DNA of 64,000 nt from positions 42,311 to 106,310 of IMG/VR virus record IMGVR_UViG_3300028591_000128; one strand, given 5' to 3'. The notes under the pieces are model-generated. The model made no database searches and was not told the origin of the DNA. It saw only the letters and a program-made list of their open reading frames with translations. Below are positions 11,001 through 59,887 of the stretch, one piece after another. The translations under genes were made by a program, and so were the position numbers. This DNA comes from a virus (taxonomy: Duplodnaviria; Caudoviricetes). Positions within the stretch are counted from its first letter, which is position 1; each line of letters begins with the position of its first letter.

Positions 11001-11973
11001 ATTGTTTTAATGCTCCAGTGCTAATCATAGCACTATAAACTACATCAATTACTTTAGGCTGTTCGGATGCGTATTCTGGAACAATGTCACGATAAGAAAT
11101 CTCAACTCTAGGAAATGTGGTAGAAATGAGTTCCATGTTTATAGTTCTACCATTCGATGGTTGAGCAGTATCAGGTAACTTAGTCCATTTGGAATCATTA
11201 AATGGTCCTGCAGGAACAGATGTATCTGAAGTACATTCGTATAAGAACCCTTTGTACATTACTTGGTCTGCATTATGACCAGAAGATGCAGCTCTATAAG
11301 AAGAAGTAACATCGTAGGATGTAAATGCGTATCCAAGTCCGGGATATTTTCTCCCATTATTATCATCTCTTGGATATCCATCAGCCCCATAACCCGGAAC
11401 ACGTTTCATGTACTCAACAAATCGTGCTTCTTCGTTGTAGGATACAAACGCATTGTAAGCCTCATCATACGCAACTTTAGCATCATCTCTTGCTTGCTTC
11501 TTACCAGCAATTCGGTTTGAACATACTTGACAAGATTCACAAGCTGTAGTTGCAGGATAGTATGGGCATTCATCTTTAAGTGCTGCTTCAGCATCATCTA
11601 ATGCATCCTTGGCTGCATTCATTTCTTCAAGAAGTCTTTGATACTCAGGATCTGTAGAGCTTGGAATTTCATCCCCAATTCCAGCAGGAAGTCCTTCTGC
11701 ATCTTGTTCCTGATTTAGAAGACCCATTGTTCCAAGTGAAATATATCTCGGAACATAGTTAGAAAGCATGGAGTAACCTGGATTAAGTCCATGCCGTTCA
11801 TTTGGCATAAAATCACCAATAAGATGATGTGCAACACCATACAGAAGTGAGTTAGTAGCAGCGTTATGTCCACTTACTTCTTGAACTACATCCCCTGTCA
11901 ATCTATCAAGAACTTGAATAGATACATTCTGCTTTATATCTAATTTCTTTGCAATTTCTGAAATATTCTGCAT
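5017..11973 (-). CDS. giant virion/adhesin-like protein with DUF285/BspA-type repeats
   Basis: 2318 aa; many WDVSxVTxMxxMF-type repeats (WDVSHVTNMSHMF, WNTSSVTDMSYMF, WDTSNVTTMESMF). Confidence 0.7.
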   Translation of the reverse strand: MQNISEIAKKLDIKQNVSIQVLDRLTGDVVQEVSGHNAATNSLLYGVAHHLIGDFMPNERHGLNPGYSMLSNYVPRYISLGTMGLLNQEQDAEGLPAGIGDEIPSSTDPEYQRLLEEMNAAKDALDDAEAALKDECPYYPATTACESCQVCSNRIAGKKQARDDAKVAYDEAYNAFVSYNEEARFVEYMKRVPGYGADGYPRDDNNGRKYPGLGYAFTSYDVTSSYRAASSGHNADQVMYKGFLYECTSDTSVPAGPFNDSKWTKLPDTAQPSNGRTINMELISTTFPRVEISYRDIVPEYASEQPKVIDVVYSAMISTGALKQFREEGKDYVFITEAGLWSKKTWQLGSENGLLAGYRIGPPNESNWDMTVPENRKILKENILKVGTNQVVQVVWKIQIGSINEFLKGSIEPVPEPPAYHDFYLTTGATSSGALNKIFLEKLPSRSRSVYFEQADEKRGYLVDPTVFSTEENLYLDFVTNEDDTETIFWWTAEGEVNYSTRTTDPFYNLTMITQDMTKWHFNGVDYTYLPNEYADDFAELLPSSGYYTPKLRRIVQLYNPETGYYSGYYIGGDFTNTTDYIDASEIKQYPTSTIPTSMDEYPIYAVSGDWEHSGTTTLSDQIFYTCEATPIGFLDDENIHTVMNAFYTCLSPQDNPNELFVDLLDWDYSRVTNMDYLFASRESTELTRRNADPAYHVHTTWQLFGIDSAVNVTSTKGMFQGSVDSFDGIFNGSVYEIPEGHSAFMDVLANVTDASYMFSEFNGEFSNIYGSDPVELPNVENVSHMFDGANPGIYTHSGYYLVNGAKFIFGSSTHESAYPIDATYMLANIDADSINSGWFTFNREVDASYMFYHSTIAYVQLYDYEYDFAKYAVSMSHMFDGADINAGSSPGTLYANSNGGFPYLTDTSYMFSSITGYDGSSIFINFYADDYDCTPNLENMEGMFYQTDKLSQLDYESAYGFYTFALTNGYVPHAYTGYAINWDVSSVTNFSYAFYQLPSASAALMNLDCSGGVNFSHMLEGVLGKQSVYVRDDYDTHTDTHSISAYGSGGAYSLSAWVSPTSEYETGYFSSMKVSSSAQDMNSMFADARGICLPLDLSEWDVRNVTDVEHMFHGFTSKPIYYHYSRYEDDDIHPAYSEDVYVGDTGYYAVPLNVEHPDNFYIKLPTFNFSNLTYYSHAMDLCSVPKVVLNNIHVDSVSTLNKIKAFFADNHIYYFEAKNWTFDPSITDLSNFFTRWRKLCAIDLSGWDVSHITNFRQMFSRLEALEPDEASPSPGIIDYSSLDDWDISSGVDFYEMCGSVLHCSDPDATEDDVDYYGNGYPVPCCWFNEKPCENTYRFPNWNGTWDRTGLSQYESGEFDYPYYAFNPYGKGIAEPKAGSGFGTFTPATPSGFVTLSSSGINQLRSASSSAYRFLPLETGYDTAVLEYHLPENSESYYYEEPQSIGETAEEFRMHAQSLDTTDPTTYVYYDDGLYYCDTPLQFTNLQNFKDILAAINGTETISFRNWDAYNLTSLENLFADNPCKYLGIDMESTQNITNLSNTFASMDHIHCIYGIREWDTANVTTMSGIFQYDYTGYFYGDDLSNLKLDSLVNLNYAFEGSDIPIPEHLDTSNVMYMNSTFKEYKGSQAELHWDTSNVTTMESMFEDCDTYVDISYLDTSSVTTMENMFRGAVVYGDVSSWDVSHVTNMSHMFESTKEFYNDLHTSSWNTSSVTDMSYMFATSSQSLADLLLQVHGLENWDVSRVTNFEFMFSYGYTGEHRKVPSGIFSNWSINSIESVSGMFEGCDLHNYSSTDFDGWINDNGYFTCDSMFKNAILPSTYSQEYDGYIFDMSSWNIGESTDLSSMFESASFGSVSDHSVLILPDSHGMSLSHGEGCYTDFFQNSDINKLVWNNMTIRFGDHTSLSEIFGFTGSDIINDSPKFQTIIARNWYIDDASLSNMFSNLHYLINVDLSSWDVHDVTDFSEMFYKPNDVENYSGHDRPMPGVLDFSSLDHWIFINYSSDFTRMCASNLDDVGNETYHAFEQGYRFPNWSGGTWDTTGLQVVHIDQANYPYYYDQAGEEYDAYCFGTNGTRTDSIGGQNVTTPILVNKPPRTSTFGTFVPTSTSWTYNWDFTSSLVDTEQSANLTFADNTTTPATGEWVQGTGIRIQDADGKNICVPATLFVPGTVVEFDVTDCTMYHRDWADSWIIGNLIGDASQYIGFITADEDYGQWGFSADWYTFNPTVEHAGFVSLGVEGLTYFANSTFKIESDEGANGKLVLKFYKDNTLLATTPELNHNNTDFLPKNNTNWEFFLTVSNMEDVTITGLRIRNGSQS

Positions 11974-11984
11974 GTCTACCCCCT

Positions 11985-12356
11985 CTACGGAATCTCGGAA
12001 GTTGTAGATTCTTCATCATGTACTGTAATCGTTGTAGTTCTATAAGAATTAGTTCCTTTGATTTCTAATCTATATTCTCTTGGTGCAAGTTCTTGATTCA
12101 GTGGATTATCCTCGTGCTTGGGTTCATGTGGATCAATCCGTCTATGAAGATTTGGATTTGTAAATCCGGTTACTTGATCTTTATCATATGCAATTTGATC
12201 TTCAATTGTACCATCCTCGGTCTGAACCCAACCGGAACCTGCACCTGCAATAGGATAAGGAACCTCATTTCCATCTGCATCTGTGTATGTTAAGTTTTGA
12301 AGGTCGGATTCTGTATAAGTTTTATCTAAATTTGGCCAAATTGTAGGGTCGGGCAT
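11985..12356 (-). CDS. hypothetical protein
   Basis: 123-aa ORF, GGAGGTGG SD, ACCTTGTATA motif upstream. Confidence 0.65.
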   Translation of the reverse strand: MPDPTIWPNLDKTYTESDLQNLTYTDADGNEVPYPIAGAGSGWVQTEDGTIEDQIAYDKDQVTGFTNPNLHRRIDPHEPKHEDNPLNQELAPREYRLEIKGTNSYRTTTITVHDEESTTSEIP

Positions 12357-12420
12357 ATACTACCACCTCCATTACTTCTTATAAGATTATACAAGGTTGG
12401 GTTTCTATGAACACATAGAA

Positions 12421-12450
12421 AGGGTGGTGAGCAAGTCTGCGCACCACCCT
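12421..12450 (-). terminator. hairpin terminator after endolysin
   Basis: agggtggtg...caccaccct stem. Confidence 0.6.
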
Positions 12451-12459
12451 AGGAACAAC

Positions 12460-13587
12460 TTATTTAACTATAACATAACCATCCTTGTCAAACTCATAAT
12501 CAACTTTATTGATTCGAACTGTTCGACTTGATGGATACCATCCTTCGGCAGTAGTAAACCACTTACCTTTAGAATCTGATTTCCAATACCCCTTCTGCTT
12601 GTAAGTTTGCTTACCGTTCGCATCTAAGAACAACCCATCAATCCACTCGATATTTGCCATGTGTCCATCAGGATATAGATAGTACTTGCAACCATTTATG
12701 GTTTGCCATCCGGTAAGCATAGCACCATCAGCACCAAGGTAGTACCAACCGCCTTTGTAAAGTTCCCACTTGTTCTTCACCATGTTGCCATTTTCATCGT
12801 AGTAATACCACTTGCCGTTCTTCTTAACCCATCCGGTCTGAATCTCTACATCACTGATGTATCTTGTACCTTGATATAGACCACAAGACCATCCAGACTT
12901 GTGCTGAAGCCATGTATTACCACTAGCATCATGACGAAGTTTTGTACAAGTAACCTTGTCACCCTTTTTCAAAGATCCTGTTGATGCATACTTATTTCCC
13001 GGACCCTTTCGAATCTGTACACCATCATACTTAACTTCATAAGTATTGTCTACTTTGTATCCATCCATTTCCTTTGGTTCTGGTTCAGGTGTTACATTAT
13101 AAACAGGATGTCCATAATCAAGGATATCACTATTAGAGCGATAATAGCTCTTCGCCTTTACACCAGATACACCGCTACTTACATAGCAGTTACCTTCATA
13201 AGTATAAATCATCTTATCAGTTACTTTGTAAACAAACCCAATATGTCTTGGATATGGAAGTGATCCGAAGTAAACTGCGCATCCTACAGTTGGATTGTTG
13301 TCTACCCTTCCAATACTTTTCAGATATTCTCTCGAATACCTTACACCTGCTCCTAAACTGTCCTTTGGACGATTTAGAACTGTTCTTGCTCGGTCTTCTC
13401 CCAAGGCATTTATGAAATTCCAATCGAAGAAAACTGTGCACCAATCATATCCGTACTTGTTTCCGTTGTACCAATCCGTATAATTCTTGTCGATATCAAG
13501 TGCATATTTAGACTTTCTATCTTTACAAGTATATCCAGTTGCTACTTGGTCTGCAAAGGATTTTATTACCTTCTCAAGTTCAGTCAT
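12460..13587 (-). CDS. endolysin: CHAP + SH3b + choline/cell-wall-binding repeats
   Basis: DWCTVF, RHIGFV, YEGN (CHAP); VQIRKGPGNKY (SH3b); GWVKKNGKWYYY and GWYYLGADGAMLTGW repeats. Confidence 0.85.
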   Translation of the reverse strand: MTELEKVIKSFADQVATGYTCKDRKSKYALDIDKNYTDWYNGNKYGYDWCTVFFDWNFINALGEDRARTVLNRPKDSLGAGVRYSREYLKSIGRVDNNPTVGCAVYFGSLPYPRHIGFVYKVTDKMIYTYEGNCYVSSGVSGVKAKSYYRSNSDILDYGHPVYNVTPEPEPKEMDGYKVDNTYEVKYDGVQIRKGPGNKYASTGSLKKGDKVTCTKLRHDASGNTWLQHKSGWSCGLYQGTRYISDVEIQTGWVKKNGKWYYYDENGNMVKNKWELYKGGWYYLGADGAMLTGWQTINGCKYYLYPDGHMANIEWIDGLFLDANGKQTYKQKGYWKSDSKGKWFTTAEGWYPSSRTVRINKVDYEFDKDGYVIVK

Positions 13588-13676
13588 GTTGGCATCACCC
13601 CTTTCATATAATATATTTGTAGAATAATTCTACATAACTATATAAAAGGTAGATGCCTTGCAATTTTAAATTATGA

Positions 13677-14681
13677 TTAAGCTATCTTATTCTCTGCGAA
13701 AAATTTTCCTAAATTTGCATCTCTGGTTACATCAGAATATACTTGCAACATAGTTGCAGAATCCCAGTTCACCATATCCATAATGATATCAAGTGGAACA
13801 TTCTGTTTAATGAGCATAGTTGTAAAATAATGTCTGATACTATGCCAATAGAAATCTTTTCCAAGTATTTTTGTAAAATCATCTGCCCAATGATTTAATG
13901 ACTCTATTGATAGTGGTTTATTGTGAAACTTATAAGATACAAATAGACAATCTCCACGAATCTTGTGTTTCTTATAATCTTCCATAAGAAGATCAAAGTA
14001 AGGCTTGAATTTATCTTTCAACACATATAGATGAATCTGTTTTCCTTGTACTCCTCTACCTTTCGTTTTGATAGGATTAGTAGACTTCCACAACGAATCA
14101 TAAATCACATTTTCATCTTTGAAGTCAGAAATCTTGAATCTAAATAATTCTGATTTTCTTCTACCAGAATACATAGCCAATGCTAACGCCGCTGCCTGCC
14201 GAATCCTATCATGTGCTACAAGATAATCCAGTAGTCCGTTTAATTCATCTTCTGTAAATACAGTTTTCGGTAGAACTTTTTTAACCGGAGGTGAATCTAT
14301 CTGCTTTACAATATTCTTATACCCAGGATACTCATCATCCAAAATCTTTTCAATATAAGTAGACATAGTAGAAAGTGCAGACTTTACACAATGCATCCTA
14401 CTGGATGACCAATTCAATGTGTAGAGTGCGTAATCTTGAAACCGAATAAAATCACGTTTTGTAACCTTCGTAAATTCCTTATTACAATTATGTATCAAGT
14501 TATACACAAAGAATGCTTCGATATTTTTCTGATACTCATAGATAGTAGTCGGTGCTCTGTCAATAGACTTCATGTAAGATAAGAAATCACGAAGTAGAAA
14601 TTTGTTCTCCGGTTTCACTAATTTCAAAGAGTTCTCATCAGTTAATGGATTTTTCTGTACTTTTCTCGCCATAAGTATCAC
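13677..14681 (-). CDS. tyrosine recombinase/integrase family protein
   Basis: SGRRKSEL (R), KTKG (K), HSIRH (HxxR), terminal LQVY (Y). Confidence 0.85.
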   Translation of the reverse strand: MILMARKVQKNPLTDENSLKLVKPENKFLLRDFLSYMKSIDRAPTTIYEYQKNIEAFFVYNLIHNCNKEFTKVTKRDFIRFQDYALYTLNWSSSRMHCVKSALSTMSTYIEKILDDEYPGYKNIVKQIDSPPVKKVLPKTVFTEDELNGLLDYLVAHDRIRQAAALALAMYSGRRKSELFRFKISDFKDENVIYDSLWKSTNPIKTKGRGVQGKQIHLYVLKDKFKPYFDLLMEDYKKHKIRGDCLFVSYKFHNKPLSIESLNHWADDFTKILGKDFYWHSIRHYFTTMLIKQNVPLDIIMDMVNWDSATMLQVYSDVTRDANLGKFFAENKIA

Positions 14682-14762
14682 ACTCCTTTTGGATTATTGA
14701 CAATATAATGTGGTTATATATTATAACGATTTACCCCATCAAATTTCTAATGAAATTATAAA

Positions 14763-17721: not shown

Positions 17722-20139
17722 TTAGTACTGTATGTTTTGTCCGACTGGTAAACTAGCAGCAACCCATTTACCATTAACAACTGTTAATACTTTTCCATCA
17801 TCTAAATCTGATACTTCTGGAAGTTCAACTGCGCTTTCAATGAGGTCAACAATCGGCTGAAACTCCTCTGTGATATACTCCACCTCCATATCTCCCGTAC
17901 TGCTCTCTATGTGGGTGTAGCCGGAGAGAGATTTGATTGGGAGGTTGGTTTGGGTGATGGTTTCAGTGGTGGGAGTGGTGAGCAATCCACATATTTCCAA
18001 GTTGTTATTTGATAAATAATTAGTAAAATCAGAAAGACTTGAAGCACTCGGAAATCCTACATATAATCGGTTATTTACATAAGCAAAAGATGGGCCTCTT
18101 CCAGCGTATGCACTTTCATTGTCCGCAACAAGATAATTGGAAAATCCATTATCAAGTGTTTGCCCCCAAATTGAAGCAAACCCTAAATTACCGTCTAATA
18201 TAAAACATGTCGGTCTATCTACTGAGGCTTGTTGCCAGTTTTCTGTGCCATCAAATACAACCTTTTTCCACTCTGTTGTCACTTCCCCATTCACCACATC
18301 CTCACTCCCTCGATAGATAGCAGAGGGGTAGGTGGTGGTGTGGGTGGTGGAGGTGTAGGGTTCGTATGTGGTTGGTACAGAACCCTTTTCAATTTGCCAA
18401 TCATAATCAAGTGGGTCATTTCTGACCGGATTATATCGACTTGCCACCGTCACATATCCATCAATCGACTCACACGTTATAGGTGTTGAATTGATAACTC
18501 CATTGGTGGCTGATGATGCACCACTATCTACATTTCCCGGCAAGAAGAAAATATCTCTATAATTTTCCTGTCCTCCGCCTGTTGGAGGGCAATTAGTTGA
18601 CATGGTAAATGTTCCCTCACCAACAAACATAGGCTTATATGTGAGAGTGCCTGTGTGGTTGAAATCATTTTTATCACAGAGGTTCTTCCCCCTCACCTCA
18701 ATCTCCCCCTCCGTATATCCGCTTATGGGGCAGATGTTGGAGTAGGGGGTGAAGGTGGGGTCGGATTCTGTAGAGAGACGAATCATGGGCTTGAATAAAA
18801 GGTTGTTCGCCGTGTAACCGTTACGGATAGTAATATATGCCGAGCTGATATTTGCGGTTGGGGTAGTTTCTGATATGAGTCTCCAATCATTTGCATTATA
18901 TGCGTTTATAAATATATCCGTTACATCGGAATATACCTGTAATGCAAATGTGGTTTCAGAACCTCCGTTTATACCACCATTTACAACATAAGTTCCATCA
19001 AATGTGCCTAACGATGTAATATTCGCAACAAGGAAATAAGTAACCGCATTTGCCGTACCATTTACTTTTATACCCGTAACATTATCATCACCATCCGTTT
19101 CTAACGTAAAAGTTACTCCATTCCGAGTGTAGACATTTCCACTCCAAGTACCACCAGTATTGATTGCCTTTATCCCGTCAACCGTCATAGGGAGTTTATT
19201 CTTTCCACTACCACCTACCCACGGCTTATCATATCCATGCAAGTCCTGATTTCCTTGGATGGCGGTTACGCACTTTACCAAAGGTGCGTCTGCTCCATCG
19301 GTTATCTCGATAGGATTTCCGCTTGCGGTCTTGGTTACGGATGCTTTATCTTCTATTTCCTCTGTAATCTTATTACTACTCCATGTAGTATCTGTATCTG
19401 TTGCGGTATCATCAATTATATTATCAATCTTATCAGTTATTGATTCACCATTGATCTCTACATCCTGTGCAGTTACTACACCTTCTTTAGATACTTTGAA
19501 AGTTGCATCAGAATAATCATCTTGTGATCCACCACCTGCAAACAAGTATCCGGAATTCGGTTCAGCTATTTCTGAAAACTTTCCATCATCTACATATACT
19601 TGTGCAGAATCTAACATATATCTTGCGGCATCTTCAAGAGACAGAGTTTTATCCGGAATTACAGAAATTCCAGTAGCAGGACTTCCCCAATAGGCATAAG
19701 TACCGCCACAGTAATACCATGTTGTACCATTATAATCAAAACTATATGCTGTGTTATTCCATGAGAAATATGTTGAATCTGCTTCTGTAGATACCAATAC
19801 AATAGCATGATTCTGACCATCACCTGGTGTACCAATTACTCCACCAAATGCAGGCTTCGCATTCGTCTTAGTGTATGTTCGATCCCCTAATGAGAACTCA
19901 GCCGCAGTATCAAAATAATATGTTTTATTCTCACATCCCCAACCGAGTTCGTTTACATCATAATTTGCATAAACTTTTACACCATCTTCGGATATATCAA
20001 TGTTGTCCGGTGGTGTAATATCATCAACTCTCTGTGTAAGTGAAGTTAAATCCGTTCTTCCTTTCTTATCAACAAGTTCAATTTCATCTTGTATTCCAAA
20101 CTCTTGTAGATTTAATTTACTTGCAGGTCTTGTAGCCAT
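17722..20139 (-). CDS. tail fibre / receptor-binding protein
   Basis: TWSSNKI, GKNKL, EKGSVPTTYEPY and DDGKVLTVVNGKW segments typical of Firmicutes-phage fibres. Confidence 0.65.
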   Translation of the reverse strand: MATRPASKLNLQEFGIQDEIELVDKKGRTDLTSLTQRVDDITPPDNIDISEDGVKVYANYDVNELGWGCENKTYYFDTAAEFSLGDRTYTKTNAKPAFGGVIGTPGDGQNHAIVLVSTEADSTYFSWNNTAYSFDYNGTTWYYCGGTYAYWGSPATGISVIPDKTLSLEDAARYMLDSAQVYVDDGKFSEIAEPNSGYLFAGGGSQDDYSDATFKVSKEGVVTAQDVEINGESITDKIDNIIDDTATDTDTTWSSNKITEEIEDKASVTKTASGNPIEITDGADAPLVKCVTAIQGNQDLHGYDKPWVGGSGKNKLPMTVDGIKAINTGGTWSGNVYTRNGVTFTLETDGDDNVTGIKVNGTANAVTYFLVANITSLGTFDGTYVVNGGINGGSETTFALQVYSDVTDIFINAYNANDWRLISETTPTANISSAYITIRNGYTANNLLFKPMIRLSTESDPTFTPYSNICPISGYTEGEIEVRGKNLCDKNDFNHTGTLTYKPMFVGEGTFTMSTNCPPTGGGQENYRDIFFLPGNVDSGASSATNGVINSTPITCESIDGYVTVASRYNPVRNDPLDYDWQIEKGSVPTTYEPYTSTTHTTTYPSAIYRGSEDVVNGEVTTEWKKVVFDGTENWQQASVDRPTCFILDGNLGFASIWGQTLDNGFSNYLVADNESAYAGRGPSFAYVNNRLYVGFPSASSLSDFTNYLSNNNLEICGLLTTPTTETITQTNLPIKSLSGYTHIESSTGDMEVEYITEEFQPIVDLIESAVELPEVSDLDDGKVLTVVNGKWVAASLPVGQNIQY

Positions 20140-52410: not shown

Positions 52411-52587
52411 CTAATCGGGAAGTTCCAATTCTAACACAAACGAATCTTTCTGTACCGTTGTAAGTGCATTTGCTATTCCATCAAAACTCGGTTCTAATCG
52501 TTGTTCAAGATAAATTCCAGGAGTACGGTCTGATGGATTTTCTGGATTTCTACCACGCATAGCACATGAAAAATATAATTTATTCAT
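52411..52587 (-). CDS. MTase TRD-like cassette 23
   Basis: CAMRGRNPENPSDR...EQRLEP..DGIANALTTVQKD. Confidence 0.7.
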   Translation of the reverse strand: MNKLYFSCAMRGRNPENPSDRTPGIYLEQRLEPSFDGIANALTTVQKDSFVLELELPD

Positions 52588-52717
52588 CTTCATCACCAAA
52601 ATAGATCACAAGAAAATCCATTCTACCTGAACGAAAGGCCGGTGCATAATTATTATAGAATCTTGCGTTTCTAACTGTTGCATATGTATCATCAACTATC
52701 CACATCTGAATCATCAT
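52580..52717 (-). CDS. MTase TRD-like cassette 22 (not in ORF track)
   Basis: MMIQMWIVDDTYATVRNARFYNNYAPAFRSGRMDFLVIYFGDEDE; GAGGT SD. Confidence 0.6.
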   Translation of the reverse strand: MMIQMWIVDDTYATVRNARFYNNYAPAFRSGRMDFLVIYFGDEDE

Positions 52718-52847
52718 CCTGTACCTCTATAATCTTCCAGCCATTCCTTAATGCAGAATGACCTATAGTCGTTGTTATACTACCAAGTATATCTGATTGG
52801 GATGGGATATAAGAATCATAATCATTATAGGCTATGAATTGTTTCAT
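52692..52847 (-). CDS. MTase TRD-like cassette 21 (not in ORF track)
   Basis: MKQFIAYNDYDSYIPSQSDILGSITTTIGHSALRNGWKIIEV; paralog of cassette 7. Confidence 0.7.
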   Translation of the reverse strand: MKQFIAYNDYDSYIPSQSDILGSITTTIGHSALRNGWKIIEVQDDDSDVDS

Positions 52848-53016
52848 AATCATCCACCACTATCATTGGAACTCTGCCACCACCTTGAGAAGTTGTTAGT
52901 GATGGACAAAAATATTCCGGATCCCATATATTTCCAGCATATCCAGTTCCAAAATCTTCATTATATATATTAGCAAGTTTCCTTACATTGAATTCCAATA
53001 TCTTTCCACCATTCAT
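52825..53016 (-). CDS. MTase TRD-like cassette 20
   Basis: GYAGNIWDPEYFCPSLTTSQGGGRVPMIVV. Confidence 0.7.
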   Translation of the reverse strand: MNGGKILEFNVRKLANIYNEDFGTGYAGNIWDPEYFCPSLTTSQGGGRVPMIVVDDYETIHSL

Positions 53017-53170
53017 ATACTGCAACATTTGCAAATCCATATCCATGTCCTGCACCACCACAAACAATAGCTGGAAATATTCCATCCGTGTGGACAACAA
53101 TGCCACCTTCGGAATTACCTGTACTATAATTACCTATTGTCAGTATTTTATTCGTATCTTGATTTATCAC
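52970..53170 (-). CDS. MTase TRD-like cassette 19
   Basis: GGIVVHTDGIFPAIVCGGAGHGYG; GTG start. Confidence 0.65.
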   Translation of the reverse strand: MINQDTNKILTIGNYSTGNSEGGIVVHTDGIFPAIVCGGAGHGYGFANVAVYEWWKDIGIQCKETC

Positions 53171-53298
53171 AAATAAGTACCGCCGTTACAGTTCCATGGT
53201 TTTCTTTCACACACGGAGCAACCCACCCCCACAGAAACAATTCTGGAAGCATCATGGTTGCTGAACATATAATTTCCTAAAATGATAATTTCATTCAT
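53148..53298 (-). pseudogene. MTase TRD-like cassette 18, frameshifted
   Basis: MNEIIILGNYMFSNHDASRIVSV continues in another frame as VAPCVKENHGTVTAVLI; one extra base in GGGGGTGGG (53222-53230). Confidence 0.6.
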
Positions 53299-53452
53299 CT
53301 TCATCTCTTACCAAAATGTATAATTTCTGTCCAGTCATTATTGTAGTCATTAGAGATGGGCATATTCCTTCTGAATCATATGTTGATCCATCATATCCGG
53401 CTTTACACTTCCCGGATACTCCACCCAAAAACATGATCTTAAAGTTATCCAT
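53291..53452 (-). CDS. MTase TRD-like cassette 17 (not in ORF track)
   Basis: MDNFKIMFLGG...STYDSEGICPSLMTT...LYILVRDEDE. Confidence 0.65.
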   Translation of the reverse strand: MDNFKIMFLGGVSGKCKAGYDGSTYDSEGICPSLMTTIMTGQKLYILVRDEDE

Positions 53453-53615
53453 CACTCACCACAACCCTTATCGGAGTTTTGAAATCTCTTGCCATCAATG
53501 TAGGTGCCAATCCACCAGCCGAATATATATAGCACCACTGGTGCATCTTTTCGCTACCATTCTCCGGAAGAAGTAATCCAACTGTTATTATTTCATTTTG
53601 TTCGGATAGAATCAT
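53445..53615 (-). CDS. MTase TRD-like cassette 16 (not in ORF track)
   Basis: MHQWCYIYSAGGLAPTLMARDFKTPIRVVV; paralog of cassette 3. Confidence 0.7.
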   Translation of the reverse strand: MILSEQNEIITVGLLLPENGSEKMHQWCYIYSAGGLAPTLMARDFKTPIRVVVSDG

Positions 53616-53796
53616 TATCAATCACCAAAATCGTAGTATCTTTTAATATAGTAGAAATTGTATTACAGATTCCATCTGTTCTTACAGACCAGGTTCTCAT
53701 ATTGCATCTTCGTTCAGATAATTCATGCGCTTCGTATTTCTTTCTGATTTGTTTTGCGTATTCTGTTCTTTCATATCGTAGGCATTGGAAATTCAT
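53593..53796 (-). CDS. MTase TRD-like cassette 15
   Basis: LRYERTEYAKQIRKKYE...RTDGICNTISTILKD. Confidence 0.7.
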   Translation of the reverse strand: MNFQCLRYERTEYAKQIRKKYEAHELSERRCNMRTWSVRTDGICNTISTILKDTTILVIDNDSIRTK

Positions 53797-53804
53797 AATA
53801 TTTA

Positions 53805-54470
53805 TTATTTACTGATAGTGTTATGAATACCAGATTCGTGAAATGACACTGCTACATAGCCATTATTGGTTTCATGATCTACATCTATTTTTATATATAG
53901 TTTCAATGAATCTATTGTAACAGGTGTGCCGTTTCGCTTTCTTGGTGGAAACGTAAATGGTCCAGAAATCTTAAAAATCATAAGAATATCATTCCACTGT
54001 TCTACATCAGTAGAGTATTTAGCAGATGTACAATCCCTATATGTCATAGCATCTATAATTTCTTTTGCATATTCATCAGTAAGTTTTGCCCCTCGATTCA
54101 AAAGCATCTGCTTAAAATCATTATTCTTATCGCTTGGTTTTATATAAATAAGTTCACAATCTTGAACCTTTTTTAATAATTTTTTCTTCTCCGCAGATGT
54201 AAGATTTATTTCATCAACTTCATTTGCATGATATACAATAAATTGTTGCATGGGAAACAATTCGTCATACGATAACTTACGAAGTGTTGGTACATCCCTT
54301 ATTTTTTCTCTAACATTGTCAGGAAGTGTCATAAGTTCATCATGATTCATTTTCGTGATATCTTTGCCCTTATAGTATTCACCAGCAGTAATATATTCAC
54401 GTATAGGGTGATATTCTGACACATCATCAACAACAATAATTGATACAATATTTAATGCATCTATATCCAA
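53805..54470 (-). CDS. putative MqsR-like toxin
   Basis: C-terminal LYIKID...VAVSFHES pattern of MqsR/RelE-fold RNases; downstream of an RHH gene. Confidence 0.5.
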   Translation of the reverse strand: MDIDALNIVSIIVVDDVSEYHPIREYITAGEYYKGKDITKMNHDELMTLPDNVREKIRDVPTLRKLSYDELFPMQQFIVYHANEVDEINLTSAEKKKLLKKVQDCELIYIKPSDKNNDFKQMLLNRGAKLTDEYAKEIIDAMTYRDCTSAKYSTDVEQWNDILMIFKISGPFTFPPRKRNGTPVTIDSLKLYIKIDVDHETNNGYVAVSFHESGIHNTISK

Positions 54471-54508
54471 ACCTATATCAGCAAATTCAGAAGTTCTAAT
54501 ATATCGTT

Positions 54509-54712
54509 TTATGATAGCAATTCCTTTCTACTTTCATAATATTCTATTGTTTTCAAGATATACTTTGTAACAGACAGATTCTCAGACTTCGCATATTCTT
54601 TAATCTGACATCTCATCCCTTTAGGAACATTTATAGCAACAGTATCATAATGCTGCTTATTGTATTCTGCCTGATATTTGATTTGATCAAACTTCTCACC
54701 ACTGTTAATCAT
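54509..54712 (-). CDS. ribbon-helix-helix (antitoxin-like) regulator
   Basis: YNKQHYDTVAINVPKGMRCQIKEYAKSENLSVTKYI; paralog of 48808-49005. Confidence 0.7.
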   Translation of the reverse strand: MINSGEKFDQIKYQAEYNKQHYDTVAINVPKGMRCQIKEYAKSENLSVTKYILKTIEYYESRKELLS

Positions 54713-54729
54713 AATATAGCCTCACCAAT

Positions 54730-54775
54730 AGAATACCACATATACTATTATATGTCAACACATATAATAGTATAT
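54730..54775 (-). promoter_or_regulatory. SigA promoter with 16-bp inverted-repeat operator
   Basis: TTGACA-N17-TATTCT; perfect IR atatactattatatgt (54740-55) / acatataatagtatat (54760-75) centred on the -35. Confidence 0.75.
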
Positions 54776-54780
54776 TAAAT

Positions 54781-54963
54781 TCACTTAATAGAATTTTTAA
54801 AATCAGAAGGAAGTACAATTTCTAAAACCATAGGAATCTTTCCACTACCGCGTTCCATAGTAGCCATAAGTGTTGGTGCAAGATAATCAAAATCATAAAG
54901 ATTAAAATGTTGACCGAAACTTTTATGGAATGTTCCTAAAACTTTTACTGTATTTTTCATCAT
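54781..54963 (-). CDS. MTase TRD-like cassette 14
   Basis: GQHFNLYDFDYLAPTLMATMERGSGKIPMVL. Confidence 0.7.
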   Translation of the reverse strand: MMKNTVKVLGTFHKSFGQHFNLYDFDYLAPTLMATMERGSGKIPMVLEIVLPSDFKNSIK

Positions 54964-55096
54964 TAATCACCAAAACAATCATAGGCACATACCCACCACC
55001 AGTACCCATAGAAGATGTCAAGCAAGTACAGATCCCATTTGTCTTTACGGATTGATGGTCTTGCATACCACCTATAATTACATCAAGAAACATCAT
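54923..55096 (-). CDS. MTase TRD-like cassette 13 (not in ORF track)
   Basis: IIGGMQDHQSVKTNGICTCLTSSMGTGGGYVPMIV. Confidence 0.7.
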   Translation of the reverse strand: MMFLDVIIGGMQDHQSVKTNGICTCLTSSMGTGGGYVPMIVLVINDEKYSKSFRNIP

Positions 55097-55241
55097 AAGC
55101 AATTACCAAAATCATAGGAACTTGACCACCACCTTCTCCGGCAGCGGCTGTTAATGTCGGACAAATGTATTCAGAATCAAATATAATTCTCCGTTGACTA
55201 CTATTCGGATTTAGTGTACCTAATGAACATATCTCCATCAT
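55083..55241 (-). CDS. MTase TRD-like cassette 12
   Basis: SQRRIIFDSEYICPTLTAAAGEGGGQVPMILV. Confidence 0.7.
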   Translation of the reverse strand: MMEICSLGTLNPNSSQRRIIFDSEYICPTLTAAAGEGGGQVPMILVIAYDVS

Positions 55242-55401
55242 CAACCACCAAATACAAGTTTGAAAATCCACCGACATTCCCTACAGGTTGTGCCATTAAA
55301 GCACAAGCAATATTGTCAGCAAGATATACAGCATTTCCCTGAGTGAACTTTCCTTCAAATTTTGCTATTTTCTTTGTAGTATTTTCTGTAAATTCATTCA
55401 T
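55201..55401 (-). CDS. MTase TRD-like cassette 11
   Basis: QGNAVYLADNIACALMAQPVGNVGGFSNLYLV; paralog of cassette 9. Confidence 0.7.
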   Translation of the reverse strand: MNEFTENTTKKIAKFEGKFTQGNAVYLADNIACALMAQPVGNVGGFSNLYLVVDDGDMFIRYTKSE

Positions 55402-55558
55402 CTTCAACTACCAAATATCTATAACTTCCACCTGGAATATTTGCTGGGTGGCATAGTGCAAATCCATCTGAAGAATATACACGATCTTGCTGATAGAATT
55501 GTGTCCCTCCATTAGAATTCATTTCACCAAGTCCACCCAATACAATCGGTTCATCCAT
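55394..55558 (-). CDS. MTase TRD-like cassette 10 (not in ORF track)
   Basis: MDEPIVLGGLGEMNSNGGTQFYQQDRVYSSDGFALCHPANIPGGSYRYLVVEDE. Confidence 0.7.
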   Translation of the reverse strand: MDEPIVLGGLGEMNSNGGTQFYQQDRVYSSDGFALCHPANIPGGSYRYLVVEDE

Positions 55559-55742
55559 CTTCAATCACCAAGTAAAGATTCGTCTGGCCACCTAAACTAC
55601 CTACAGGCTGTGATAGTAATGCTACGGCAATATAATTAGATGAATACACCCGGTTTCCCATTCTAAATCTACCACCAAAGTTTCTTTCGCCAAATGCTGT
55701 AATTCTGTATGGGAAATTTGTATTACTTACCGTCAGTTCCAT
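55551..55742 (-). CDS. MTase TRD-like cassette 9
   Basis: MGNRVYSSNYIAVALLSQPVGSLGGQTNLYLV. Confidence 0.7.
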   Translation of the reverse strand: MELTVSNTNFPYRITAFGERNFGGRFRMGNRVYSSNYIAVALLSQPVGSLGGQTNLYLVIEDG

Positions 55743-56433
55743 AACCTTCACGTACCATTCTTTCATCAGTTGTTTCAAAATTCGGATCATAAACAACTTT
55801 GTAAAGATGTTCCATTAAATATTGTACACAGTTACTAATCAAGCCATTCGTTGTGTTATCATGTAGTTTTTTATCTACACTTCTGCATCATTACAATGCA
55901 GACCAGCATATCTATTTACCAAAAGATTCTGCATCTTTTACCATCCGGTAGCGAGGCCTCTTGGGAGTATTATATTCTTAAACATCTCAGTTTAAGGTTC
56001 AACTCCTATGCGTTGCGGTTGACTAAACTTTTACATTTAGCCTTAACACTCTGATTACGGTTGCAAACCGTTTTCCAGCTTATTTCCTCACTTATAATCC
56101 ATAGTATACTTGATGGTTTCACTATGGACGGCATAACATTAGCTTCGCATTTTAGGCACTAATGTTCTGTTTACCTGCTTGCTTGTATAGCTGTGAATTA
56201 CTAACTCCGGCATCCTTACACTTTTGACAATCTTCTTTGGTCGACCCCATAAGGATAAAACATTCTTCCGGAGTAAGCTTACGAATCTTCAAATGTTTTA
56301 CCATTTCTTCCTGTTCTGGTGTAAGCTGAACTTCTTCCGAAGATAATTCTTCAACAGATTCTTCCGAAATTTCTTCAGAATCTTCATCTTCGTAATCTTC
56401 CCAAGAATCAGTTACTTTTACGTCTTCTTCCAT
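55723..56433 (-). CDS. C5-cytosine methyltransferase C-terminal subunit (motifs IX-X), spliced: exons 56433-56173 and 55848-55723
   Basis: IRKLTPEECFILMG (IX); SQLYKQAG|NGLISNCV (X) restored by removing the intron; 128 aa. Confidence 0.85.
55849..56172 (-). ncRNA. group I self-splicing intron (324 nt, no homing endonuclease ORF)
   Basis: 5' exon ends in U, intron ends in G; P1 AGGU/GCCU, P10 CAUU/AAUG, P3 AGUGAGG/CCUCGCU, P7 GCAUA/UAUGC, plus P2, P5, P6a, P7.1, P8 and P9 stems in canonical order. Confidence 0.88.
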
Positions 56434-56434
56434 G

Positions 56435-56666
56435 TTATTCCTCGCTTTCTATTTCCTCTATGACTACAAGACAATTCTCACATCCGCAAGTTAATGCTGG
56501 ACAAACACTTCCGGGGGGGGGTTCCTTGTGCTCTGCCACGTCTTAATCTACTTGATGGATAACTAAAATCCGCTACATGATAATCACCTGTTAACGGAAT
56601 TTCTACATATCCGAGTTTAGTTGCTTGCTTTATCTGTATTGTGTTCCCAAGAATCTGGATCATCAC
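56435..56666 (-). pseudogene. MTase TRD-like cassette 8, frameshifted at a C9 tract
   Basis: IKQATKLGY...DFSYPSSRLRRGRAQG; C8 instead of C9 gives GSVCPALTCGCENCLVVIEEIESEE*. Confidence 0.65.
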
Positions 56667-56802
56667 TAACCTCTATAATTTTCCAACCAGTTCTAAAAGC
56701 AGAACTACCTATATGTGTAGTTATTGCACCAACAAATCCTATACATATATCTGATGGAACTTTTGAATTAAAATCATCATATGCAATTATATTCACTACC
56801 AT
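56617..56802 (-). CDS. MTase TRD-like cassette 7
   Basis: IAYDDFNSKVP...VGAITTHIGSSAFRTGWKIIEV. Confidence 0.7.
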   Translation of the reverse strand: MVVNIIAYDDFNSKVPSDICIGFVGAITTHIGSSAFRTGWKIIEVSDDPDSWEHNTDKASN

Positions 56803-56976
56803 ATTTTACCACCACATAAGGATTCAATCCTCCACCTTGAGCACAATTTAATGCTGGAGATATACCACAAGGAAGATACACTCTATATCTTTGTGGATTA
56901 TCTCTTGTAGATTATCTCTTGTAGATTCTATCTGATGTGCTATAGATCCTACTTGATAGATTTCATTCTTGTTCAT
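56777..56976 (-). pseudogene. MTase TRD-like cassette 6, frameshifted by a 14-bp tandem duplication
   Basis: removing one attatctcttgtag copy gives RDNPQRYRVYLPCGISPALNCAQGGGLNPYVVV. Confidence 0.7.
56897..56924. repeat. 14-bp tandem duplication (attatctcttgtag x2)
   Basis: read directly from the sequence. Confidence 0.9.
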
Positions 56977-57124
56977 TAACTAATACCTTCGGTGCATCTT
57001 TATAATGAGTAGATTTTAGACAGCACATAACCCCATCAATAGAATACACTTCCTGATTCTGATGGATTTTATCAGATGTCATACCAAGCAATCTACCCAG
57101 GTAGATCATATCATTCTGATTCAT
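56963..57124 (-). CDS. MTase TRD-like cassette 5 (not in ORF track)
   Basis: IHQNQEVYSIDGVMCCLKSTHYKDAPKVLV. Confidence 0.7.
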   Translation of the reverse strand: MNQNDMIYLGRLLGMTSDKIHQNQEVYSIDGVMCCLKSTHYKDAPKVLVNEQE

Positions 57125-57272
57125 ATATTAATATCCTTGGTGGATTTCCGCAGTGCATGGCACGTAATGCACAGATAAGTCCTTCGCTGCTATACACTTC
57201 CCGGTTCTGTTGGAATTTTTGTCGTTCTTCTACATATAGTCTACCGACTATTTGGATGTCCGATTTATCCAT
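57111..57272 (-). CDS. MTase TRD-like cassette 4
   Basis: FQQNREVYSSEGLICALRAMHCGNPPRILI. Confidence 0.7.
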   Translation of the reverse strand: MDKSDIQIVGRLYVEERQKFQQNREVYSSEGLICALRAMHCGNPPRILIYESE

Positions 57273-57427
57273 TGATGTTCTCCAATAAGTATTTGCCTGG
57301 GTGATTTCCAATCCCGAGCAGTACAAGTAGGTGCCACACCATTACTATCATAAATGTAATCCTGAAGATGCACTCTACCACTATTTAATTCTGGCTGAAC
57401 AATTCCAGCTATAATGATGTTATGCAT
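57248..57427 (-). CDS. MTase TRD-like cassette 3
   Basis: HLQDYIYDSNGVAPTCTARDWKSPRQILI. Confidence 0.7.
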   Translation of the reverse strand: MHNIIIAGIVQPELNSGRVHLQDYIYDSNGVAPTCTARDWKSPRQILIGEHQWINRTSK

Positions 57428-57578
57428 CTTCCACCACCAATACATTTATTAGATTTCCAGACCGTAAACAAAAACTTATTCCATCACCAAATATCTCTAG
57501 GTGAGTGATTCTTTTATTTCCATGAAGGTTGTAAAACCGATCTATTGGTTTTTCTTCCACAGATTCAGCATATATCAT
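57420..57578 (-). CDS. MTase TRD-like cassette 2
   Basis: DGISFCLRSGNLINVLVVEDA. Confidence 0.6.
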   Translation of the reverse strand: MIYAESVEEKPIDRFYNLHGNKRITHLEIFGDGISFCLRSGNLINVLVVEDA

Positions 57579-57747
57579 CTTCGTATTCAACATATGCAAT
57601 TGCACCTGTGCATCCATAAATTCCCCACTCACCAAGATTCTTTACATTGTTTTTATAATATTGTGCTTTCAGAGTTCTACATAAACCATCTGTATCATCA
57701 TTCAATGCTGATATATATAGGACTCTGAATTTCTTATCACTGTTCAT
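57565..57747 (-). CDS. MTase TRD-like cassette 1
   Basis: LNDDTDGLCRTLKAQYYKNNVKNL...GCTGAI. Confidence 0.7.
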   Translation of the reverse strand: MNSDKKFRVLYISALNDDTDGLCRTLKAQYYKNNVKNLGEWGIYGCTGAIAYVEYEDDIC

Positions 57748-58642
57748 CTGATTTCTTCGTAAGATCAACTTTTACTTTTCCGTTGACTACCAAATCCCGG
57801 ATAAGTGCCTGTGCTCTTTCATTTGTAATATAATACTTTTCATCTACATCTTTCTGAAGAACATCTTTCAGACGGATTCCTGTATCATATGGCTTTGGAA
57901 ATTCAAATGTAGAAAGATCATATTTATCACGAAGCCAATAGATTGCAAATACACGCTTACGATTCTGAGGAACACCACAGTTCTTACCATTGATTACATC
58001 CCATTTACAATCATATCCAAGTTCAGCAAATTCTCCATTAAGAAGTTCAAACTGAGGAAGATTCTTCTTATTTACAAGTGCATCTACATTTTCCATAAGA
58101 AGAAACGGTGGAAGAACATTAAGTTCTTTCATGTTTCCGAGAATACGAAGAACCTCATAAACCAATCCGGAACGTGTTTCACCCTTAACCATACCGGCTT
58201 GACGACCAGCCAAACTGATATCGGTGCAAGGAAAGCTAAATGTCAGCAAATCACAATAAGGAAATTCTTTTACCATACTAATATCACCAACATTCTTATT
58301 CAACTTATTCGCAAGCCAAACAGTTTCCAAAAACATATTAGTATCTACACTACATACCAGCTTCAGCCAATCATAAGGTTTATTTGCAAGAAAATCAAAA
58401 CCAATATTCATCTTCTGAAGTTGCCTTGCCATAGTAAACCTATCTGGATAAAACAAGTATGTTTCAACCATCTTACGAGTAAGACCATGATGAATTGCTG
58501 CATAAGAAATAATTGCATCTGTATCCAATTCACATGTGTTTACTACTTCCATGTCAAATAATCCGGTATTACGGATGCCCATCTCTTGAAAACCTATACC
58601 GGAAAATGTAGTTACTACTTTCAACGGAATTTTATTCTCCAT
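57737..58642 (-). CDS. C5-cytosine DNA methyltransferase, N-terminal catalytic subunit (motifs I-VIII)
   Basis: FSGIG (I), CELD (II), SFPCTDIS (IV), MENV (VI), PQNRKRVF (VIII); stops at the start of the variable region. Confidence 0.9.
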   Translation of the reverse strand: MENKIPLKVVTTFSGIGFQEMGIRNTGLFDMEVVNTCELDTDAIISYAAIHHGLTRKMVETYLFYPDRFTMARQLQKMNIGFDFLANKPYDWLKLVCSVDTNMFLETVWLANKLNKNVGDISMVKEFPYCDLLTFSFPCTDISLAGRQAGMVKGETRSGLVYEVLRILGNMKELNVLPPFLLMENVDALVNKKNLPQFELLNGEFAELGYDCKWDVINGKNCGVPQNRKRVFAIYWLRDKYDLSTFEFPKPYDTGIRLKDVLQKDVDEKYYITNERAQALIRDLVVNGKVKVDLTKKSDEQ

Positions 58643-58735: not shown

Positions 58736-59887
58736 TTATGTATGTATCAGTATAACATTTTCACTTTGAAGCGTCGATCTATGTATATGAAGTTCTTCTG
58801 AATCAATATATGATTTGCAGATATGTTCAAATTCTGCAACATCGTTGTCTGTAGATGTATTATCAAAATTTAAATACATTATGCATCCGGTTACATAGGT
58901 TTCGCAACATTCATCAGAAGATCCAAATGGAAGTATTGATACACCACACACAGTAAATCTATCGCACTTATTATGAACTGTGTCTATAAATTTTACTAAA
59001 CTGTCATGCAGACTCTTCGAAATTTTTGGTTCAGAGCCAAAGTATCCATGTTCCTTGACATCATTATATATTGTATAATTTATGTAAAAATTCCGTACTC
59101 CACAGCAAGCATAATTCATACTTGAAAAATCTTCACCAAAAAATAGGGAGTTTTCCCTGTAATTAATCCGTTCCATTGCACAGTCTAAATTGCAATTTTC
59201 CGGTAACATATTATCAATTATAGTATAATCAATTCCCCAGGACTGCATAACATGATTTGGCATAACATATTCTGGTGATATATCGTGCATGATCGCATCT
59301 TCGCAACACCATAATATATCATAATAAACTGAAATCTGTGTGGAAATTGGTAATGAACTAACTTCATCTACAAATCTTGCCTGACCTATTGCACACATTG
59401 CACCTACACTTATGGATATGTTAAAGTCTTCTTTATCAATATCATGAAAACTACAATCCAATGTGCACATAGGATCATCACCTATAGTAATATACTCAGA
59501 AACTTTTGAAAATAAGTGGTATATGACTTCATTAGACAACTGAATCCAATAAGGTATACGGACAACAATATATCCTAAAGATTCAAAATAGTCATCACGT
59601 TCTCGATCATTCAAAACAACTTGTGGATCTTGATAATGTGCGATACCATCAAACTCAACAATAAGATTAAGTTCCTCACATCTAGCATCAGGCTTGTATC
59701 TACGAAGTTTTGCATCTTTGTTTCTATTAAATACAACATCTTTTGGTACATTGGAATTATAAACAAAGTCATAACCATTAAATATGTATGACAAATACTC
59801 CTTTAATGGTGTATTACGATTCGGATCAAAATATTTCACATCAGATTCACGTAGATATTTCCATCGCATAGTTTCTAGTTTTTCCAT
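58736..59887 (-). CDS. DUF559/Vsr-like PD-(D/E)XK endonuclease domain protein
   Basis: KPDARCEELNLIVEFDGIAHY...DRERDDYFESLGYIVVRIPYW. Confidence 0.7.
   Translation of the reverse strand: MEKLETMRWKYLRESDVKYFDPNRNTPLKEYLSYIFNGYDFVYNSNVPKDVVFNRNKDAKLRRYKPDARCEELNLIVEFDGIAHYQDPQVVLNDRERDDYFESLGYIVVRIPYWIQLSNEVIYHLFSKVSEYITIGDDPMCTLDCSFHDIDKEDFNISISVGAMCAIGQARFVDEVSSLPISTQISVYYDILWCCEDAIMHDISPEYVMPNHVMQSWGIDYTIIDNMLPENCNLDCAMERINYRENSLFFGEDFSSMNYACCGVRNFYINYTIYNDVKEHGYFGSEPKISKSLHDSLVKFIDTVHNKCDRFTVCGVSILPFGSSDECCETYVTGCIMYLNFDNTSTDNDVAEFEHICKSYIDSEELHIHRSTLQSENVILIHT

Follow-up and report, generated by a model that had tools for sequence, protein, structure and literature searches.

Multispecific C5 cytosine DNA methyltransferases (C5 methylases) of Bacillus phages carry about three to five target recognition domains (TRDs). 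They are reportedly the subject of Wilke 1988, Trautner 1996 and Sethmann 1999 (as cited in PMC8936443 and PMC12707154), and the title of Sethmann et al. 1999 is said to report TRDs at separated locations in M.phiBssHII. Arranged in tandem, the TRDs give these phage methylases several specificities (PMC8936443), and the multispecific enzymes described include M.SPRI, M.Phi3TI, M.Rho11sI, M.H2I and M.phiBssHII (PMC8936443, PMC12707154). C5 methylases made of two polypeptides (M.AquI, M.EcoHK31I) are established as well, as is fragment complementation within the variable region (PMC3404938), which has also been brought about artificially for M.SssI and M.HhaI (PMC3404938, PMC3439449, PMC2836561). 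Here we describe a gene array on the minus strand of positions 52411-58642 of a 64,000-nucleotide stretch of DNA from a large uncultured phage (hereafter the window; Duplodnaviria, Caudoviricetes; positions 42,311 to 106,310 of IMG/VR record IMGVR_UViG_3300028591_000128), which we believe, at a probability of roughly 0.62, to encode a multispecific C5 methylase made of separate polypeptides. What would be new is a split, multispecific C5 methylase whose TRDs are subunits of their own; full-text literature searches turned up no account of C5 TRDs encoded by genes of their own.

Read along the minus strand, on which all of its elements lie, the array consists of a gene for an N subunit, eight small genes (cassettes c1-c8), a gene for a C subunit, six further cassettes (d1-d6), a pair of genes encoding a ribbon-helix-helix (RHH) protein and a 221-aa, MqsR-like protein, and nine last cassettes (e1-e9). 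The first-pass annotation of this region had described a methylase broken into a motif I-VIII gene and a motif IX-X gene and surrounded by 23 mini-genes, eight before and 15 after the latter, and it was right in positions and counts, the 15 being divided six to nine by the RHH pair. The N gene (57737..58642, 301 aa) matches PF00145 (1e-41, profile positions 22-209), its translation contains the C5 motifs I (FSGIG), IV (FPCTD), VI (MENV) and VIII (QNRKR), and it stops where the variable region or first TRD would begin. Its ratio of nonsynonymous to synonymous substitutions (dN/dS) is 0.12 against the relative L001 and 0.05 against L002 (about 95% and about 80-90% identical in DNA, respectively). 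An exhaustive search returned 18834 matches to the N subunit, and among the best 150 of these are 23 N-like proteins of at most 340 aa. The C gene lies in two exons, the first (56173..56433) encoding an acidic leader followed by motif IX and the opening portion of motif X, the second (55723..55848) the remainder of motif X and a C-terminal helix; the subunit matches PHROG methyltransferase families at 1e-10 to 1e-11 and fits the invariant columns of the C-subunit alignment. N, C and every TRD are separate open reading frames (ORFs) in different frames, and not parts of a single polypeptide as in PF00145 enzymes, and the core is divided as in M.AquI, with motifs I-VIII on one chain and motifs IX-X on the other. 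The variable region is absent from both of these chains, given that N ends before any TRD and C opens with its acidic leader followed by motif IX.

The cassettes are 45-67 codons long, somewhat shorter at the upper end than the 45-76 first proposed for these short overlapping ORFs, and comprise at least 15 sequence types. A single plan had been suggested for most of them, and in an alignment about 15-17 do follow 'strand-G...VY...G..P.L...LV-acidic'; at least six others (c1, c7/e7, c8, e1, e8, e9) represent different TRD types. The best match in the PDB of a profile built from 17 cassettes was M.HhaI residues 225-256 (E 0.05), which form the strand-loop-IYS-G-I-x-x-TL core of its recognition domain. 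In-line homologues were sought in the 117 proteins of at least 380 aa among the best 150 of the 18834 N-subunit matches, and 20 of the 23 cassettes match inside long single-chain C5 methylases (380-792 aa, E 1e-3 to 1e-20), with most best in-line matches falling between motifs VIII and IX. Cassette e9 (52411..52587, 58 aa, RGR...TTVQKD type) shares 64% identity with the third of three tandem TRDs in P0143 (E 3e-17; best in-line match 1e-20), and e6 (52825..53016, 63 aa), d5 (54923..55096, 57 aa) and e1 (53593..53796, 67 aa) have their counterparts in P0158 (E 1e-17), P0220 (E 8e-15) and P0228 (E 2e-14). The single TRD of P0127 (residues 292-342) is matched by c3 (57248..57427, 59 aa; E 3e-9), residues 363-397 of P0163, ahead of motif IX, by c1 (57565..57747, 60 aa), and a segment of P0194 by c7 (56617..56802, 61 aa). 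Three in-line homologues are located towards the other end of the enzyme: that of d1 (55551..55742, 63 aa) follows motif X in P0154 (E 8e-14), that of e8 (52580..52717, 45 aa) is found at the C-terminus of the same protein, and that of e5 (52970..53170, 66 aa, GTG start) comes after motif X in P0201. From the in-line matches of 20 of the 23 we conclude that the cassettes belong to the same TRD families as those of single-chain, apparently multispecific relatives, which bears out the resemblance to methylase variable regions that had been noted from the letters alone. As in the SPR-type enzymes, several short, non-overlapping and differing TRDs accompany one core; they are not placed in tandem on the enzyme chain between motifs VIII and IX.

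Some cassettes are evidently paralogues of each other, namely c4 (57111..57272, 53 aa) and c5 (56963..57124, 53 aa), c7 and e7 (52692..52847, 51 aa; 60% identical), and d1 and d3 (55201..55401, 66 aa). The array is completed by d4 (55083..55241, 52 aa), e2 (53445..53615, 56 aa), e3 (53291..53452, 53 aa) and the cassettes whose positions are given further below. Two of the cassettes have unusual ends. The tail of c3 (57248-57275, ..GEHQWINRTSK) aligns with ..KENEPIRKLT of P0127, the beginning of motif IX, and in its sequence looks like a relic of the excision of the cassette from an in-line gene. The tail of e5 (52970-53016) is 15 codons longer than usual and extends into e6 because the usual TGA reads TGG, the stop/start overlap GAATGA being replaced by GAATGG, also in L002.

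The small genes show the marks of selection on their encoded peptides. In Nei-Gojobori counts pooled over ungapped cassettes, dN/dS in the called frames was 0.17 against L001 and 0.28 against L002, compared with 1.03 and 1.57-1.60 in the two other frames, and the synonymous excess in the called frames was strong (Fisher p about 1e-24 and 3e-22). One example is c2 (57420..57578, 52 aa), whose ORF is kept in L001 with a dN/dS of 0.16. Neighbouring cassettes overlap by 8-50 nt, the next ATG preceding the previous stop; c1 shares an 11-nt stop/start overlap with N, and d2 (55394..55558, 54 aa), 96% identical in L001 and L002 and 82% in L008, has an overlap of 8 nt. A Shine-Dalgarno (SD)-like GGTGAT or GGTGGT is positioned 5-8 nt upstream of the next ATG, within the terminal Leu-Val-Val/Ile codons of the preceding cassette. 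Pairing to the canonical anti-SD, with the host 16S tail assumed, averaged -6.0 kcal/mol at cassette starts versus -3.6 at 159 other ATGs of the array (p = 2e-4). The start/stop overlaps suggest translational coupling, and the ratios in the cassettes' own frames together with the putative initiation sites speak for translated genes and not for neutral or untranslated remnants.

At 22 of the 23 junctions the next start is in the +1 frame, the c4 junction (+2) being the sole exception, and one could imagine ribosomes that shift +1 at every junction and thereby read the array in-line into long polypeptides with many TRDs. This we hold to be extremely unlikely, as 87% of the embedded ATGs in the long ORFs of this phage are in the +1 frame already and the 22 of 23 do not depart from this background (p=0.35); the bias therefore requires no special mechanism, and a special meaning of the uniform shift was rejected as equal to the compositional background. 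Moreover, the overlaps of varying length offer no common slippery site, the +1 frame at the conserved GGTGAT-type junctions d1→d2 and d2→d3 runs into a stop two codons ahead of the ATG, the C gene is preceded by an SD of its own and is free of any overlap with c8, at least eight successive shifts would leave almost no product, and shifting could not bring the 15 cassettes past C into a place between motifs VIII and IX. A reassigned stop codon was also considered and rejected, the cassette stops being a mixture of TGA, TAA and TAG and neighbouring frames being different.

Three cassettes are frame-broken in this genome. A 14-nt tandem duplication (56914-56927) disrupts c6 (56777..56976), which is intact in L001 (11664-11849) and L002, and e4 (53148..53304) has lost its frame through one extra nucleotide within a run of G at 53225; in L001 (14997-15152, with a run of eight G) it is in frame, whereas in L002 it is out of frame, as here. 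The RRGR-type c8 (56435..56666) loses its frame at a run of nine C (56513-56521), where removal of a single C would restore the GxPPGS reading of the relative P0010. In L001 the run is equally long with an internal A, and c8 is also out of frame, as it is in a different manner in L002; because of this the c8 break must be inherited and is not a slip of assembly. A further break, a 1-nt deletion in d1, occurs in L001 only. The first-pass annotation had named assembly indels within one long ORF as what would undo its reading; the frames proved to be conserved in L001 and L002. Frame breaks in this genome and its relatives, together with the existence of long in-line enzymes, are what one would expect of an in-line multispecific methylase that is falling apart and whose mini-ORFs are frameshifted remnants. 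We nevertheless consider this very unlikely. The low ratios are confined to the called frames. Genomes as divergent as L002, at about 80% DNA identity, retain these frames together with the overlaps and starts, and distant phages have overlapping arrays of the same kind; selection and conserved layout together exclude decay for most cassettes. Furthermore, each junction offers a start codon with an SD-like site upstream, and 15 cassettes lie after the C gene. Within cassettes, runs of at least five G or C occur only in c8 and e4, and no G/C run in the window other than that in c8 reaches a length of six. Both cassettes might be switched by changes in homopolymer length, which is not a general feature of the array.

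The layout of N, mini-genes and C (with or without further mini-genes) was found in L001, L002, L004, L005, L007 and L008, of which L004 (142 kb), L005 (133 kb), L007 and L008 (143 kb) are unrelated large metagenomic phage contigs. A comparison of cassette number and order in related phages, which had been proposed at the outset, thus reveals a recurrent layout in which cassette types are independent of position: e9, e1 and d1 types, all after C here, are located between N and C in L007, which has nine cassettes. In-line relatives show similar freedom. In the single chain of P0154 a short linker leads directly into motifs IX-X, with no TRD between VIII and IX, and all three TRDs come behind motif X; P0201 likewise places one TRD there, and the order in P0155 is circularly permuted (TRD-IX-X-I..VIII). 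Since the same types precede C elsewhere and TRDs can follow motif X, the downstream position of the 15 cassettes is no argument against their function. Free-standing proteins of both kinds occur in the metagenome protein set (573 C-like and 111 cassette-like, with no informative source names), and the GenBank phage set of cultured phages yielded no close C subunit, its best matches being less than 60% identical and belonging to ordinary methylases.

In L004, P0010 and many other relatives a TRD of the c8 type is fused to the C subunit, and an M.AquI-like pair of this kind is probably the ancestral state. It might be argued from these fusions that only the TRD joined to the core, for example in the c8 position, is active, with the other cassettes serving as a reservoir to be recombined into that expression site, an alternative that the first-pass annotation had offered for the downstream cassettes. 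The junctions do share a repeated TTGGTGATTGAAGATG-like sequence able to support recombination, and cassette content varies between relatives exactly at junctions. In L002 (11217-11441), for instance, c7 is exactly deleted and c6 ends with the C-terminal tail of c7 (..NTDKASN), a pattern that suggests recombination between repeated cassette junctions. However, silent copies would have no use for the start codon and SD-like site that all cassettes keep, fusions to C nearly always involve the c8 type and not a rotating set of TRDs, no recombinase gene adjoins the array, and the c8 site itself is broken here, which would leave the enzyme without an active TRD. We therefore regard a reservoir as unlikely.

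A multispecific methylase of separate polypeptides is supported by the anatomy, the TRD homology, purifying selection, the initiation signals, conservation of the layout and position independence. Several points weigh against it. No in-line homologue was detected for c2, c4 and d6 (54781..54963, 60 aa) among the long N-subunit relatives, a Pfam search of 20 cassettes retrieved no methylase even with E values up to 10 admitted, and PHROGs gave no match for the five cassettes searched. In isolation, c3 was modelled with middling confidence (59 residues; predicted local distance difference test score, pLDDT, 72.6; predicted template modelling score, pTM, 0.46), showing two short strands only. Free cassettes would have to compete with the fused TRD wherever one is attached to C, c6, c8 and e4 are frame-broken here, with the state of c8 in all three genomes pointing to some decay under way, the pairing energies presuppose a canonical 16S tail in the host, and we know of no precedent for a three-chain assembly among C5 methylases. 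The c3 model had no structural match by Foldseek against the PDB or in VIA-align wide, and a phmmer search of e9 against the PDB gave none either; c3 alone is uninformative in this respect, being a 59-residue fragment whose folding probably takes place on the core. The lack of a confident fold match for an isolated cassette, and the fact that selection tells us that the peptides matter and not what they do, would also be compatible with mini-proteins that are made without conferring specificity, and that instead bind DNA or host methylases and restriction enzymes, or regulate the core. We judge this to be quite unlikely, given the homology of the cassettes to TRDs from families of functional single-chain enzymes and their constant linkage to a split core without a TRD of its own; to our knowledge TRD fragments have no role in direct binding of DNA or host enzymes or in core regulation.

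If the array does encode a methylase of separate subunits, we infer that the C transcript is spliced, that the core assembles and TRDs dock on it, that each cassette specifies one motif and that the enzyme counters restriction. The array would be transcribed as one or two operons, with a second promoter-like site before the RHH gene, and every mini-gene would be translated from its own start codon, coupled through its overlap with the preceding stop. N, bringing motifs I-VIII, and the spliced C subunit with motifs IX and X would form a catalytic core without its own recognition domain, whose small domain would be completed by one 45-67-aa TRD mini-protein at a time. Each complex of N, C and TRD would then methylate its own short motif, there being as many specificities as intact cassettes (about 20 here), and jointly the complexes would shield the phage DNA, so that one core probably marks many sequences and evades many host restriction enzymes. 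Changes in the repertoire might come about through duplication and divergence, through cassettes gained or lost at the repeated junctions, and through frameshifting of individual cassettes. We see about even odds for the scheme in its full form, in which any one of about 20 interchangeable subunits can complete the N+C core in trans, which would be the largest known specificity repertoire of a single methylase, and in which recombination at junctions, short duplications and frameshifts in homopolymers add, remove or silence specificities.

The motif IX-X gene had been placed at 55723-56433 as one uninterrupted gene, and while its start at 56433 and its motifs hold, it consists of two exons around a 324-nt insertion within motif X (55849..56172) that contains no ORF. 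This segment is precisely missing from L001 and L002, which read YKQAGNGLISNCV uninterrupted and in which the two exons run on unbroken (12193-12579 and 11623-12006, respectively). These alleles indicate that the gene is interrupted and not truncated. With the segment removed, the C gene reads IRKLTPEEC ... YKQAGNGL (motifs IX and X), in agreement with the two alleles, and splicing would yield a C subunit of 128 aa. The segment is probably a group I intron. Its boundaries are GGT|...G|AAT, where T closes the 5' exon and G is the last intron base, and the precision of the insertion, the U before the 5' splice site and the terminal G are as in group I introns; the core (P3-P9) was not recognised by the covariance model, no match to Rfam was obtained, and Intron_gpI gave none even with 361 nt searched at E up to 10. 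The RNA is predicted to fold well (z = -5.0 versus shuffles), and 130-150 nt of it share 73-74% identity with the intervening DNA of split gyrA genes in two jumbo phages of unrelated hosts, Yersinia phage phiR1-37 (AJ972879.2 244647-244792) and Bacillus phage Goe21 (OM728297.1 44908-45033). Intron-bearing C alleles with the same ending exist on other contigs (P0024, P0031, P0067). The N gene, which is without an intein in the window, carries a LAGLIDADG intein at motif IV (FPC|T) in L002 (9026-10065, within an N gene of 8612-10555) and in L007 (2532-4508). Taken together, the intein in N and the intron in motif X indicate that the core genes attract selfish elements.

Other genes have been inserted into or lie beside the array. 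A promoter-like site (54730-54758, TTGACA-17-TATTCT with TG) precedes the gene for the RHH protein (54509-54712), which belongs to a PHROG of Arc-like repressors and is inserted within the array. The 221-aa gene next to it (53805..54470) lacks an ATG start here, where L001 has 235 aa with an ATG start; neither Pfam nor PHROG gave a match for the protein, which in its C-terminal half bears a weak structural likeness to MqsR toxins (TM 0.39-0.42 by query, 0.56-0.74 by Atlas row). After the same RHH gene L002 has a different, 183-aa partner, and L001 contains a second pair of an RHH and a 179-aa gene at 18569-19309. Just before the RHH gene, L002 has acquired an insertion (12710-14687) with an N6/N4 DNA methylase (PF01555) and an IS605 OrfB/TnpB-like gene (PF01385, PF07282). 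Directly upstream of N in the window (58736-59887) lies a 383-aa gene with a DUF559 domain (Vsr-like endonuclease fold) and a weak match to a PHROG of HNH endonucleases, and this gene might encode a methylase-linked endonuclease of the homing or mismatch kind.

Should the array work in this manner, the C5 TRD would turn out to be a portable module of about 50 residues, autonomous and able to act without a covalent link, which would extend the work on multispecific enzymes of the 1980s-90s and would account for the way in which large uncultured phages of gut or rumen cope with hosts that have many restriction systems. The array would also be a naturally occurring library of small recognition modules that share one core, from which rules relating TRD to motif could be derived and which could be used for the engineering of targeted methylation. 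Annotation would be affected too, as gene callers and Pfam treat the cassettes as unnamed small ORFs.

Among described systems, the multispecific Bacillus phage methylases are alike in having one core and several short independent TRDs, in being encoded by phages and in their presumed anti-restriction role. They differ in that all their TRDs reside on one polypeptide, whereas here each TRD is a separate gene, the core is split in two and there are 23 modules. M.AquI and M.EcoHK31I share with the array a split at or within the variable region; their motif I-VIII and motif IX-X chains assemble non-covalently, as those of the array would, and L004 and P0010, relatives whose C chain carries a fused TRD, are M.AquI-like in this respect. 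In M.AquI, however, the two chains share the variable region, which here appears to have been excised as a third, exchangeable chain with many alternatives. By analogy only, the array also recalls HsdS of Type I restriction-modification systems, a separate specificity polypeptide that plugs into a shared methylase and whose repertoire varies by recombination and frameshifts. HsdS is of an unrelated fold and class (amino-methylase versus C5) and carries two TRDs while acting as the scaffold of its complex, so that we claim no membership of the array in that group.

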